Source of the DNA: Halobacteriaceae archaeon
GTDB lineage: Archaea; Halobacteriota; Halobacteria; Halobacteriales; Halobacteriaceae
Assembly: GCA_042216675.1 (NCBI GenBank)
Contig: JBDGTS010000039.1
Coordinates: 1 to 35,577 of the forward strand
Length of the DNA stretch: 35,577 nucleotides
Direction of reading: 5' to 3'
The notes under the pieces are model-generated. The model was given only the letters and a program-made list of their open reading frames with translations. It was not told the DNA's origin and ran no database searches. A program made the translations under genes and the position numbers. The number at the start of each line of letters is the position of its first letter. Within the stretch, counting starts at the first letter, position 1. Shown here one piece after another: positions 7,923 to 25,581 of this stretch.

Positions 7923-8002
7923 ACCGCCCCGTCCGAGAGGGAGCGCCAAAAGCGTTCGGCTCCCGCCCCGGACTTTTGGTGGTGGCCGTCGTCGGGGCCA
8001 CC

Positions 8003-8743
8003 ATGGACGAGCAACCACTGGCCGACGCGGGGGCCATCGTGACGGGCGCGAGTTCGGGCATCGGCGCGGCGACGGCGAAGCGACTCGCCGACGACGGGGC
8101 GAGCGTCGTCGTGGCGGCGAGACGCGAGGAGCGACTCGCGGCCCTCGTGGACGACATCGAGGACGCCGGCGGGACGGCCGCGGCAGTCCCGACGGACGTG
8201 ACGGACGAGGACGCCGTGGCGGCCCTCGTGGAGGCGACGGCCAACCGCTTCGGGAGCGTCGACGTGGTGGTGAGCAACGCCGGCCTCGCCATCGACGGCG
8301 CCGTCGAGGAGATGGCGACGAGCGACTACCGGACGATGATGGACGTGAACGTGGACGGCACCTTCTACCTCGCGCGGGCGGCGATTCCCCATCTCCGGAC
8401 GTCCGCGGGCGCGTTCGTCGTCGTCGGCAGTTTCGCCGGCCAGTACCCGCGCCCGTACAATCCCGTCTATGCGGCGACGAAGTGGTGGGTCCGGGGCTTC
8501 GCACATTCGCTGGCGGGGGGCGTCGGCGACGACGACGTAGCCGTCTCCGTCGTCAACCCCTCGGAGGTGCGCACGGAGTTCGGCGAGGAGAGCGACGAGG
8601 CCTTCGAGGAGCGCTTCGAACCGGGTGAAGTGACCGAACCCGGCGAAGTTGCCGACGCCATCGTCTTCGCCGCCGAACAGTCCCCGCCGACGGCGGTCAG
8701 CGAACTCGACCTGTTCAGGCGCGATAAGTTCTCGGAGTTCTGA
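8003..8743 (+). CDS. SDR family NAD(P)-dependent oxidoreductase
   Basis: TGASSGIG, SNAG and catalytic YAATK; ATG 8003. Confidence 0.93.
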   Translation: MDEQPLADAGAIVTGASSGIGAATAKRLADDGASVVVAARREERLAALVDDIEDAGGTAAAVPTDVTDEDAVAALVEATANRFGSVDVVVSNAGLAIDGAVEEMATSDYRTMMDVNVDGTFYLARAAIPHLRTSAGAFVVVGSFAGQYPRPYNPVYAATKWWVRGFAHSLAGGVGDDDVAVSVVNPSEVRTEFGEESDEAFEERFEPGEVTEPGEVADAIVFAAEQSPPTAVSELDLFRRDKFSEF

Positions 8744-8830
8744 AAACGCCGGTCGGAGGTCCGACCGGCAGGGGAGGATGGGTGGGGAGTTCCGGGCGCG
8801 TGGGGAGGATGGGTGCGACGCGCCCACCCG
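8743..8830 (-). ncRNA. Candidate small RNA with two CACCCAUCCUCCCC motifs and a terminal hairpin plus U-tract
   Basis: Minus-strand TTTAAG at 8850-8855; 8-bp stem 8794-8801/8818-8825; 14-nt repeat at 8771-8784 and 8802-8815; perfect 10-bp stem 8748-8769 followed closely by TTTT (8743-8746). Confidence 0.55.
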
Positions 8831-8918
8831 AACGTGACGACGGCGGCGACTTAAATTTGTGTCAGACGGCGAGCAGACGGACCGCCAGTCCCTTTGGCAC
8901 CGGCCGGCTACCACCGGC

Positions 8919-9017
8919 ATGGAGAGTTGGGCCGACCTGTTCGACCGTGGAGACGACTACGACGTGACCGTGGCCGCCGTGCGAGACGCACTCGCCGCCC
9001 GCCGGGGCGATGACTGA
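8919..9017 (+). CDS. 32-aa acidic small protein (MESWADLFDRGDDYDVTVAAVRDALAARRGDD)
   Basis: ATG 8919, TGA 9015-9017; haloarchaeal-type codon usage (GAC, GCC, GTG); overlaps the next start through ATGACTGA. Confidence 0.7.
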   Translation: MESWADLFDRGDDYDVTVAAVRDALAARRGDD

Positions 9018-9483
9018 GCGCCCGGACCCGACGCGCGTCGTCGCCGATGCGGACGTGTTGGCGGCCGACCTGCTGGTCGGCGGCGCGGCGCGCCCGGCGC
9101 TCGACGCCGTTCGACGGCACTCGTGGACGACGCTCGTGGCGAGCGACCCGTTGCTGGACGACGCCGCCGCCGTCGTCGAGACGCTGGCGGACCCGGCGCT
9201 GGCGGCCGACTGGCGCGAGCGTGCGGCGGCGCTGACGGAGCGGGTGTCCCACCCGGACGGCGACCATCCGGCGGTCGCGTCGGCCTATCATGGAAACGCG
9301 GCGCACCTGCTCACGTTCGACGCGTCGCTGACCACCGCCGCCGCGAACGCGTCGCTGAAGGCCCACGTCGAGACGAGCGTGAAGCGCCCGGACGCCTTCG
9401 CGCGGCTGTTCGACGCGGAACCGCTGTACGAAGCGACGGTGGGCGGCGAGTATCCCGGCCCGGACCGGGACCCCCGCGGTTAG
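9010..9483 (+). CDS. PIN-fold-like hypothetical protein
   Basis: N-terminal VVADADVL resembles PIN hhhDTNVL; C-terminal DHPAVASA...HLLTFD resembles PIN D..A...hTxD. Confidence 0.7.
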   Translation: MTERPDPTRVVADADVLAADLLVGGAARPALDAVRRHSWTTLVASDPLLDDAAAVVETLADPALAADWRERAAALTERVSHPDGDHPAVASAYHGNAAHLLTFDASLTTAAANASLKAHVETSVKRPDAFARLFDAEPLYEATVGGEYPGPDRDPRG

Positions 9484-24513: not shown

Positions 24514-25581
24514 GTGAACCTACCGTTTGGGGGAACGGTCCGACGGCTGAGCCATCCGTCGTGGGGATTCTACGCTCTGGGGGGGATGGGTATCTGCCTC
24601 AGCGTCGCCCATTTCGCTCTCGAAGCGGGAACAGTGGTGACGGTGCTCAAGTCCCTCATCGTCGTCGCGCTCTCGGTGACAGTCGTCTACTCTGGGTACG
24701 ACTTGCGGTCCCGGCCGATAAGCGAGGCCGGCGGCCGACGGGCGCTGGCGGTGATGCTCAGCGTGACGGCGTTTTTCGTCCTGTTGGCCGTCATCGTGGA
24801 CGTCATCTGGGCCATCGAGGCCAGCCACCACTCGGACACGGACTTCATGCTCCTCTTCGCGGGGTCGCTTGGCGCCGCCGTCGGCGCGCAGACGGGCCTG
24901 TACGAGGCCCAGTCCCGGGAGAAACTCGCGCAGAATCAGGCGCTGACGAAGCTCCTGCAGGTGAACCAGCGAGTGCTCCGACACAACCTCCGCAACGAAC
25001 TGACCGTCGCGCTCGGCCACCTCGAAAACGTGGAGACGCGGGTCGGGGCGGACGACCCCGACGTGGTGCAGGTCCGCGAGCATCTCCAGGAGGTCCTCGA
25101 CATCAGCGACCGGGCACGCCGCGTCGTGAGCATCTGGGAGACGGACACCTGCGCGACGTTCGACCTTCGAGACCTCGTCGCCGAGCGGATCAGCCACCTC
25201 CACCGGCAGTATCCCGGTACGTCCGTGTCGGCGACGGTGCCGGCGGGCAGGACGGTGGACGCACACGTCGCGTTGCCGCGCGCCATCGACGAAGTGCTGG
25301 AGAACGCCGTCCTCCACAACGACCCGACGGTGCAGATTACGGTCCGGACCACCCGGCCCCGACCCGGCGTCATCGCACTAGAAATCGCCGACGACGGGAC
25401 GGGCCTCGACCCGCTGGAGCGGCGGGCGCTGTTCCAGCAGAGCGAGACGCAACTCGCGCACGGCCGGGGCTTGGGGCTGTGGCTCGTCTACTGGATCGTC
25501 ACGAAGTCCGGGGGCGAACTGAAGTTCCGGGACAACGAGCCGACGGGGACCGTGGTCGAACTGCGGCTTCCGGCCGACTAA
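24514..25581 (+). CDS. Membrane sensor histidine kinase
   Basis: About four N-terminal TM helices; H-box LRHNLRN, N-box LENAVLHN, G1 DDGTG, G2 GRGLGL. Confidence 0.92.
   Translation: MNLPFGGTVRRLSHPSWGFYALGGMGICLSVAHFALEAGTVVTVLKSLIVVALSVTVVYSGYDLRSRPISEAGGRRALAVMLSVTAFFVLLAVIVDVIWAIEASHHSDTDFMLLFAGSLGAAVGAQTGLYEAQSREKLAQNQALTKLLQVNQRVLRHNLRNELTVALGHLENVETRVGADDPDVVQVREHLQEVLDISDRARRVVSIWETDTCATFDLRDLVAERISHLHRQYPGTSVSATVPAGRTVDAHVALPRAIDEVLENAVLHNDPTVQITVRTTRPRPGVIALEIADDGTGLDPLERRALFQQSETQLAHGRGLGLWLVYWIVTKSGGELKFRDNEPTGTVVELRLPAD

Follow-up and report, generated by a model that had tools for sequence, protein, structure and literature searches.

The locus and its question

What does the short stretch between a short-chain dehydrogenase gene and a gene of the DUF7384 family encode, if anything, in the 35,577-nt piece of contig JBDGTS010000039.1 of a Halobacteriaceae archaeon that was analysed here as a whole (the window, to which all coordinates without a contig label refer)? 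The element, read on the minus strand, spans 8868-8743 and had been proposed in a first-pass annotation, made from the letters alone, to be the gene of a small RNA able to pair with ribosome-binding sites. In the following we conclude that it is very probably a real RNA gene and the orthologue of HVO_1885s of Haloferax volcanii. The explanation that in our opinion best fits the observations as a whole, and to which we give a probability of about 0.6, is that of a single-copy small-RNA gene which is conserved across the Halobacteriales, has a promoter with a box for the cell-division regulator CdrS, and would act by pairing through a C-rich loop and tail.

A probable small-RNA gene with its own promoter and terminator

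The element has the layout of promoter, body and terminator that had been described for a stand-alone small RNA, and the individual parts, namely TTTAAG, a stem, a C-rich loop, a second copy of the C-rich 14-mer and a hairpin followed by UUUU, can each be re-read in place (Table 1). The predicted 84-nt RNA (8826-8743) has a folding energy of -36.2 kcal/mol (z = -4.9), a value not reached by any of 200 shuffled sequences, and both copies of the 14-mer are unpaired in the predicted fold, in the unpaired regions of which CCUCC, the complement of GGAGG, is found twice. The plus strand of the element is less distinctive in folding (z = -2.0), and the six G-runs that had been pointed out on it are indeed present. 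Since the 84-nt RNA contains none of the codons AUG, GUG and UUG, and since the length differences between the loops of the family described below follow no multiple-of-three pattern, the element is not a small open reading frame (ORF) and a coding reading was rejected, in agreement with the initial impression that no convincing ORF is present.

The 14-mer is rare. A scan of the window recovers its two exact copies and one site with two mismatches at 24579-24592, while shuffled sequence has on average 0.22 sites at up to two mismatches and at least three such sites in only one of 100 shuffles. At up to one mismatch the 14-mer is confined to this locus within the entire assembly (2.15 Mb in 58 contigs, 80% complete).

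No family of Rfam 15 is found at or near the element at gathering thresholds, and even at E <= 10 the matches are at chance level, the best being ar14 (RF02344) with 21 bits versus a gathering score of 58.8 (E 0.063), so that the element has no family in Rfam. ARAGORN finds no tRNA in the window, and a scan for promoters and terminators of the bacterial type gives no site in it, archaeal signals lying outside the coverage of that scan. At the very edge of the window, at 10-82 on the plus strand, Rfam reports a tRNA with 34.2 bits (gathering score 29) where ARAGORN reports none.

One copy per genome across the Halobacteriales

In a DNA search of the BLAST type against 61 relatives nearly all matches were of low complexity and GC-rich, and one short true homologue emerged (genome G014), which has in common with the window the stem, a C-rich loop, the GGAACTCC that follows and, in front of the TATA box, the 9 nt CCGTCTGAC; a strict sequence pattern matched two of 56 genomes. 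A covariance model built from two sequences, those of the window and of G014 (model R1), had matches at E <= 1 in 35 of the 56 genomes of the window's family, 26 of which were at E below 1e-5 with one per genome, and it thereby recovered the remaining members without their being in the model. A second model (R2) was refined from 28 aligned members and scores the window, which is itself among the 28 training rows, at 76.2 bits (E 6.5e-15).

At E <= 0.01 R2 finds matches in 102 of the 151 genomes sampled from the Halobacteriales, including 73 of the 99 of high quality, and these are spread over 15 of 18 families, with the three unmatched families being sampled by one, two and one genomes. Outside of the order, a phylum-wide sample of 132 genomes of other Halobacteriota, which doubles as a specificity control, gave no match. 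Within the order there is nearly always one match per genome, and a single match is found in each of the 86 loci examined and in the window. The paralogues which had been thought possible are therefore not supported, each genome having a single copy of full length. When named genomes were scanned with a pattern, chance matches in GC-rich bacteria being left out, the matches listed included Haloferax larsenii, H. elongans, Halococcus, Natronomonas, Halorussus and Haladaptatus as well as Halomarina, Halorhabdus, Salinigranum, Halobium, Salinibaculum and Halomicrococcus. It should also be mentioned that a few genomes have a second, weak match of about 24-25 bits to the stem-loop part alone (model positions 48-103), at G125 C14:56859-56910, G119 C1:998205-998259 and G141 C6:768960-769014, and these may be degenerate paralogues or chance GC hairpins.

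A covarying stem that holds a C-rich loop

The 28-member alignment has an invariant GTCTGAC, a conserved TATA box, a compensated stem and a conserved start of the tail, GGCACUCCCCACUCCC, with the compensations comprising a change of G-C to A-U (9 vs 18 sequences) and one of C-G to U-A (6 vs 18). Structure statistics were derived from 86 aligned members, 83 of them distinct, in an alignment that was fitted to the structure and in which many of the changes are clade-wide. Here 99.1% of the stem cells are paired, compared to 16-77% in slid controls, six of the eight pairs have been changed on both sides, and none of 500 shuffles reaches the observed covariation. The promoter is likewise regular, as GTCTGAC occurs in all 83 distinct members and precedes the TATA box by 4-5 nt in 75 of 81, and as the distance from the start of the TATA box to the start of the stem is 30-31 nt in 74 of 81 members. 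The window, with a distance of 30 nt, conforms to this layout in all parts.

For loop and tail, counts were restricted to the 52 members that had been found by covariance models and not by a motif pattern. Their loops measure 14-37 nt, consist of 54% C and 11% G, and hold CCATCCTCC in 29 and CCATCC in 36 members; in loop and tail the content of C is about 50% and that of G 11-18%. Conservation extends to the box, the stem, the loop core and the start of the tail and is almost absent from the spacer that separates TATA box and stem. With so little information in the spacer, the C-rich core clearly exceeds its flanks in conservation, which removes an early worry that the motif might be no better conserved than the DNA around it. 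The conserved part of the family thus consists of promoter, stem-loop and tail, and does not include the terminator hairpin. Of what had been anticipated for relatives of the element, covariation of the stem is borne out, whereas the loop is conserved in its core without being invariant, and in one genus, to which we return below, it has drifted. The duplication of the 14-mer, on the other hand, is no feature of the family: CCATCCTCC is present in the tail of one of the 52 members, which is the window itself, and the others have (C)ACUCCCCACUCCC or similar C-rich tails. The window copy is accordingly a new member of the family with a lineage-specific duplication of the motif.

Transcription of the orthologue in Haloferax volcanii

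The orthologue in H. volcanii (genome G190, C1:1739815-1739950, minus strand) is recognised by R2 with 54.8 bits, and the local sequence fits the coordinates of the H. volcanii literature. Table S1 of Babski 2016 (PMC4983044) contains a primary start site at CHR 1739904 Rev, which has a mean coverage of 232.5 and is enriched in all three libraries, and which is classed as 'intergenic' with the novel id 1885n, no entry under 'previously known RNA' and a TATA box at -28. The 70 nt listed upstream of this start are identical to the G190 sequence, and the start itself is the G directly before the stem, 29 nt after the first T of TTTAAG and 1 nt from the prediction. At the other end, the termination sites of Berkemer 2020 (PMC7237163) include one at CHR 1739778 (-) with a coverage of 8251, located 49 nt past the end of HVO_1885s.mature_transcript, and this position is the T-run after the hairpin GGCGCCG...CGGCGCU. 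Start and termination site therefore define a primary transcript of 127 nt for HVO_1885s. The accessible parts of the supplements of Laass 2019 and Gelsinger 2018 have no entry at these coordinates.

Raw reads were taken from one public RNA run, of which about 6% was read and which is not strand-resolved. The summed depth is about 220-590 over L204 1536-1601 with flanks of at most about 50, and a sharp read edge at 1545 in 140 molecules corresponds to an abundant species reaching about 61 nt from the start site. Three further runs, available as contigs only, contain the region and carry no expression information. We can conclude that HVO_1885s is a primary and abundant transcript in H. volcanii. 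The minus-strand transcript that had been predicted hence has a counterpart with a mapped start, a mapped termination site and a pile-up of reads in the orthologue, and for the window copy itself transcription is probable by homology.

A putative CdrS box in the promoter

CdrS is a ribbon-helix-helix regulator of FtsZ-based cell division that is apparently essential in H. volcanii, and chromatin immunoprecipitation with sequencing (ChIP-seq) has placed it at 18 sites in that organism, one of which is at -41 of HVO_1885s (Liao 2021, PMC8406309). When cdrS is silenced by CRISPR interference (CRISPRi), HVO_1885s is found among the top changes together with cdrS, ftsZ2, sepF and ftsZ1, its log2 fold change being -2.24 (4.7-fold down, adjusted p 4e-8), and it was suggested in the same study that CdrS activates HVO_1885s (PMC8406309). 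At the reported CdrS motif positions we find CGTC(T/A)GACG in five of five H. volcanii promoters examined, namely those of HVO_1885s (CCCGTCTGACGCAG, centre at -38), ftsZ1 (GATGTCTGACGCAAG), HVO_0398 (CCCGTCAGACGGGCG), dacZ (GCGTCAGACGCG) and HVO_2987 (CGCGTCAGACGCGCGTCTGACGG), which identifies the invariant GTCTGAC of the family, by its agreement with these sites, as the core of the CdrS box. The first-pass annotation was thus right about TTTAAG and had overlooked the invariant element just upstream of it.

In the genome of the window, the promoter of ftsZ1, a gene that was located by Pfam, has CCGTCTGACGCGCGTCAG, and a cdrS-like ribbon-helix-helix ORF is found directly upstream of ftsZ2. It is thus reasonable to assume that the same regulator acts on the RNA gene here, and CdrS control of the window RNA in this genome seems probable to us. 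A second GTCTGAC near G190 660258 does not belong to ftsZ1, and RosR, for which there is a loose resemblance to TGACA only, is rejected as the factor for the box given the data on CdrS.

Some further observations on the box should be mentioned. A partial direct repeat of it, CCGTCTGCTC, is found at 8871-8880 (minus strand), immediately upstream of CCGTCTGAC, and the ftsZ1 promoter of this genome contains an inverted pair of boxes, GTCTGACGCGCGTCAG. The layout GTCTGAC(G/A)-N(2-9)-TATA occurs in only seven places in this genome, including C43:9688 (minus), C10:40532 (plus) and C1:78375 (minus), and it recurs at orthologous genes, namely those of the GTPase ArvA/OapA (HVO_3014) and of a DUF7139 membrane protein, and also at the genes of a DUF7518 coiled-coil protein and of a ribbon-helix-helix protein beginning with 'MGNKNKT...'. 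In the accessible part of the CRISPRi data, HVO_3014 and HVO_0689, the latter being, as judged by position only, probably the DUF7518 gene, are about 2-fold down while being outside the 18 ChIP sites. The recurrent boxed promoters suggest that a larger CdrS-box regulon may be conserved.

Proposed mode of action and search for targets

A clamped hairpin with a G-poor, C-rich loop followed by a C-rich single strand is the usual anatomy of small RNAs that pair with ribosome-binding sites. For the RNA in question we propose that CdrS would activate transcription from a start about 1 nt before the 8-bp GC stem, that the stem would present the loop with its core CCAUCCUCC, and that a single-stranded C-rich tail would follow and lead into the T-run terminator. 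Loop and tail, being unpaired, G-poor and C-rich, would then pair with G-rich stretches that are Shine-Dalgarno-like or proximal to start codons, and such pairing would adjust how target mRNAs are translated, or how stable they are, in accordance with the division programme. The complement of the loop core reads GGAGGAUGG, that is, a Shine-Dalgarno-like block abutting AUG. Action by base pairing through the C-rich motifs must however be regarded as tentative, and we put its chances at somewhat below even. A more far-reaching version, a 'division riboregulator', strikes us as rather unlikely. According to this version the CdrS circuit would have an order-wide RNA arm, the loop of which would imitate the anti-Shine-Dalgarno tail of 16S rRNA and so link translation to division status, the RNA acting either as a mask on G-rich ribosome-binding or start regions in a set of mRNAs or as a sink for a factor that recognises the 16S 3' end, and the GTCTGAC-box promoters at the ArvA, DUF7139, DUF7518 and ribbon-helix-helix genes would be part of the same circuit.

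The search for targets rests on scans of seeds and duplexes. Complements of the loop's 13-mer at up to two mismatches are common in five genomes, largely as codons for Glu-Asp-Gly, and the 329 sites of at least nine contiguous pairs that a seed scan finds in this genome are not obviously enriched at gene starts. Duplexes were furthermore ranked over 3199 start regions of this genome, which were taken from crude gene calls. The best candidate is the start region of the GTPase ArvA (HVO_3014), which reads GGGAGG-N-AGGAUGGGA; the second part is found in the ArvA start region of 24 of 27 genomes and is complementary to UCCCAUCCU, and a promoter of the form TGTCTGAC(G/A)TAG plus TATA is seen in most of the 27 genomes, as judged by eye with no exact count. 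HVO_3014 is the vesicle-forming GTPase OapA/ArvA (Mills 2024, PMC10927574), and its mRNA is listed as 2-fold down in cdrS CRISPRi cells in the accessible data.

Three other observations concern possible pairing partners. The ArvA leader is conserved and has an internal potential for pairing of CCCUCC with GGGAGG (G190 C1:2846656-2846699; C43:9591-9690 in this genome), and in H. volcanii, where this 43-nt leader is entered as an annotated RNA, HVO_3014s, with a 5'-end coverage of 2913 in the accessible tables, it may be a self-sequestering or processed 5' untranslated region. Of the 3199 start regions ranked in this genome, the one that forms the best predicted duplex with the tail of the RNA (-39.9 kcal/mol) is at C12 near 21237 (reverse-complement index, minus strand), where the AUG of an ORF of 475 aa, which begins with MPTYEENWRSLEQHP, is immediately preceded by a leader very rich in G, GUGGGUGGGGGGUGAGGUGGGGGU. 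Within the window, the sole other near-match of the 14-mer, at 24579-24592, reads GGGGGGGATGGGTA on the plus strand and is there a G-rich complement, pairing with the 14-mer at 13 of 14 positions if G-U is counted; with its ATG at 24586 begins an ORF of over 300 aa (MGICLSVAHF at the N-terminus), this start being uncertain since the frame is open for 63 codons upstream, and the site could be a local target or due to chance.

Comparison with known RNAs

The closest known RNA is HVO_1885s itself, with which the window copy shares the box, the spacing from TATA box to stem, the GC stem, the loop core CCCAUCCUCC and its occurrence as a single copy. The two differ in the loop, which has 16 nt in the window and 29 nt in HVO_1885s, in the second exact 14-mer of the window's tail, in the terminator hairpin, which is closer in the window, and in their neighbours. 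Furthermore, expression, CdrS binding and RNA ends of HVO_1885s have been measured in H. volcanii, whereas the window copy is known from its sequence.

The first-pass annotation had drawn attention to the cuckoo RNAs of Alphaproteobacteria (ar14, CcsR1-4), which likewise carry C-rich CCUCC motifs in unpaired regions of small hairpin RNAs. Cuckoo RNAs however have several hairpins with CCUCCUCCC loops, whereas the window has one motif-bearing loop and a further copy in a linear linker, with a CC loop coming last. In addition, the promoter in the window is archaeal, and the DUF1127 gene context that is a feature of cuckoo RNAs is missing. The likeness is therefore one of layout, and the two may work alike, but the window RNA is not a member, as is also indicated by the ar14 score cited above. 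In the RsaE/RoxS-type RNAs of Firmicutes, C-rich stretches that are left unpaired bind to G-rich ribosome-binding sites, and it is this concept that is shared; these RNAs give no Rfam match in the window at E <= 10 and belong to another domain of life, with another regulator and another architecture. From H. volcanii, finally, sRNA132 and SHOxi are likewise intergenic small RNAs with their own promoters, and in the accessible descriptions these two are trans-acting. They have a narrow distribution and stress-specific regulation, whereas the present RNA is found order-wide and with the box of a cell-division regulator.

Neighbouring genes

The RNA gene is convergent with the short-chain dehydrogenase gene and divergent from a small ORF and the DUF7384 gene (Table 1), which the first-pass annotation had combined into a peptide/PIN module with the RNA as a possible component. 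The small ORF has its GTG start inside the promoter of the RNA gene, with the CdrS-like box on one side and the TATA box on the other, and this ORF start is therefore unlikely. From an internal ATG at 8919 an acidic peptide of 32 aa would result, which overlaps the DUF7384 gene by 8 nt at its end and has no Pfam match. The supposed PIN protein is assigned by Pfam to DUF7384 instead, with a match to PIN_3 that is below threshold (E 0.015).

In other genomes the surroundings are different. A divergent DHDPS-family gene is found beside the box in 18 of 28 loci of the window's family (as a blastp cluster, three being confirmed by Pfam), and in many genomes its start, on the opposite strand, is about 10 nt away from the box. 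Loci of other families often have the same divergent gene together with a convergent gene starting MKFVIVGYGRVG, which from this signature alone may be TrkA-like. A DUF7384 gene is present within 1.5 kb in eight loci (as judged from a C-terminal signature, with two confirmed by Pfam) and is directly adjacent in three, and in H. volcanii the upstream neighbour is an ABC-type ATPase on the same strand. There is no constant neighbouring partner across genomes, and the idea that the RNA is a component of the module is therefore not supported, which is also in line with the CdrS box in its promoter.

Table 1. Features of the RNA gene and of its neighbours in the window
Feature	Position	Strand	Sequence, basis or remark
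RNA gene, whole element	8868-8743	minus	TATA box, stem-loop, tail and terminator hairpin
CdrS-box-like palindrome	8860..8868	minus	CGTCTGACA; family consensus CGTCTGACG; centre about -38 from predicted start
Box core	8867-8861	minus	GTCTGAC; upstream of TATA box
TATA box	8855-8850	minus	TTTAAG; sequence reading; aligns with family TTTA(A/T)(G/A)
Spacer from TATA box to stem, 24 nt	between 8850 and 8825	minus	sequence reading
Predicted transcription start	8825..8829	minus	most likely 8826, 1 nt before stem; homology with H. volcanii start
GC stem, 8 bp	8825-8818 with 8801-8794	minus	GGGCGCGT with ACGCGCCC; RNA folding
Hairpin including loop	8794..8825	minus	8-bp stem and 16-nt loop; RNA folding
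Loop, 16 nt	8817-8802	minus	CGCACCCATCCTCCCC (as RNA CGCACCCAUCCUCCCC); sequence reading
C-rich 14-mer, copy 1, in loop	8815-8802	minus	CACCCATCCTCCCC / CACCCAUCCUCCCC; holds family core CCAUCCUCC
Linker	after 8794, before 8784	minus	GGAACTCCC; sequence reading
C-rich 14-mer, copy 2, exact	8784-8771	minus	single-stranded 3' tail; repeat specific to this genome
Terminator hairpin, 10-bp GC	8769-8748	minus	GCCGGTCGGA-CC-TCCGACCGGC; sequence reading and folding
G, then TTTT (UUUU), after terminator hairpin	TTTT 8746-8743	minus	adjoins stop codon 8741-8743 of convergent dehydrogenase gene
Short-chain dehydrogenase gene	7976-8743	plus	Pfam adh_short, 2e-51; convergent with RNA
52-aa ORF	8859-9017	plus	no Pfam family; overlaps DUF7384 gene
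DUF7384 gene	9010-9483	plus	Pfam, 2e-72

Weight of the evidence and alternative explanations

A number of observations weigh against a conserved, CdrS-controlled gene for a pairing RNA. About one third of the genomes sampled at the level of the order have no R2 match at E <= 0.01, and a large genus belonging to the same family as the window has a loop that drifted to CUCCCCCACUCCCCC, which means that not every member needs the exact motif. The box of the window fits the palindrome at eight of nine positions, with an A for the last G, and the organism is known as a metagenome-assembled genome, for which transcription of the element is argued from homology. In H. volcanii the commonest species in the one set of raw reads extends to about 61 nt from the start and thus comes without most of the tail, and HVO_1885s is termed an 'RNA with unknown function' (Liao 2021, PMC8406309), the accessible literature giving no phenotype or function for it. 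As regards targets, a long complement of the 14-mer was not found in this genome, the assembly of which is 80% complete, and no mRNA stood out beyond G-rich composition in the seed and duplex scans with their crude gene calls. The ArvA start region, too, ranks 59-62 of 3199 in this genome, and against the cognate loops of 28 genomes it performed no better than dinucleotide-shuffled start regions (mean z -0.7, with two of 28 below -2). It is a lead and not a finding.

The lack of a convincing mRNA target is one of the observations that would agree with a function as protein decoy, in which an abundant C-rich single strand would titrate a factor recognising C-rich RNA or the 16S 3' end. This notion stems from the resemblance of the core CAUCCUCC to the 3' tail of 16S rRNA, GAUCACCUCC, and KH-domain proteins or factors of small-subunit maturation or initiation would be candidates. 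It is also in agreement with the RNA being very abundant and stable in H. volcanii and with the motif being held in a clamped loop, as in protein-binding hairpins, and an 18-nt motif of the 16S 3' end occurs once or twice in each of two complete relatives, at putative rRNA sites. The resemblance however comes down to CCUCC and a few flanking bases. Furthermore, loop lengths of 14-37 nt are unusual for a specific protein-binding site, and there is neither a candidate protein nor a conserved neighbouring gene for an RNA-binding protein, all of which makes a decoy improbable in our view.

That the conserved unit is DNA, the RNA being a mere by-product, is a very improbable alternative. Here the divergent neighbour would be controlled by a CdrS operator and a TATA region used in common, the non-template strand being rich in G and prone to form quadruplexes, and indeed box and TATA box are the most conserved columns of the family alignment, six G-runs are present on the plus strand, and the DHDPS-family gene begins very close to the box in many genomes. 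However, compensatory changes in the stem and a conserved loop downstream of the start point to selection on the RNA itself, the unit persists beside unrelated neighbours in the window and in H. volcanii alike, and in the latter both ends of the RNA have been mapped and reads cover it at high depth. A still weaker case can be made for the RNA as partner of the adjacent pair of small ORF and PIN-like DUF7384 gene, for instance as RNA antitoxin or as substrate. The pair is adjacent and divergent in the window and DUF7384 genes recur near the RNA in the eight loci cited above, but the usual neighbour is the DHDPS-family gene in the window's family and an ABC-type ATPase gene in H. volcanii. The 52-aa ORF moreover belongs to no family and has an implausibly placed start, the resemblance of DUF7384 to PIN_3 is marginal, and regulation would be by the CdrS box. 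Least credible of all is that the element is no more than a bidirectional terminator or 3' element of the dehydrogenase gene, with the upstream part arising by chance. While hairpin and T-run do adjoin the stop codon of this gene, the convergent gene varies between genomes, and the family alignment contradicts the idea outright, since what is conserved is promoter, stem-loop and tail and not the hairpin. The reading as a conserved small-RNA gene with a CdrS-boxed promoter and a pairing loop and tail is thus the one we prefer.

Significance

The RNA is not new as a transcript, since HVO_1885s was already annotated, mapped and known as a CdrS target. We found the identifier in the literature only in the CdrS paper and its preprint, and found no description of its order-wide conservation, structure, loop motif or function, although unopened supplements and subscription papers may hold more. 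The present analysis makes HVO_1885s a member of a single-copy family that is kept across most of the sampled families of the Halobacteriales and has a covarying stem, a loop with CCAUCCUCC and an invariant promoter element of the CdrS-box type. For the window, this means that a probable non-coding RNA gene can be annotated where gene callers give only spurious ORFs. More generally, an entry in a table is turned into a defined and testable object: annotation can use the covariance model, and experiments can mutate the short conserved loop or manipulate the regulator. Should the RNA indeed serve the archaeal division circuit as its post-transcriptional arm, it would belong to the few deeply conserved archaeal small RNAs with a clear physiological context.

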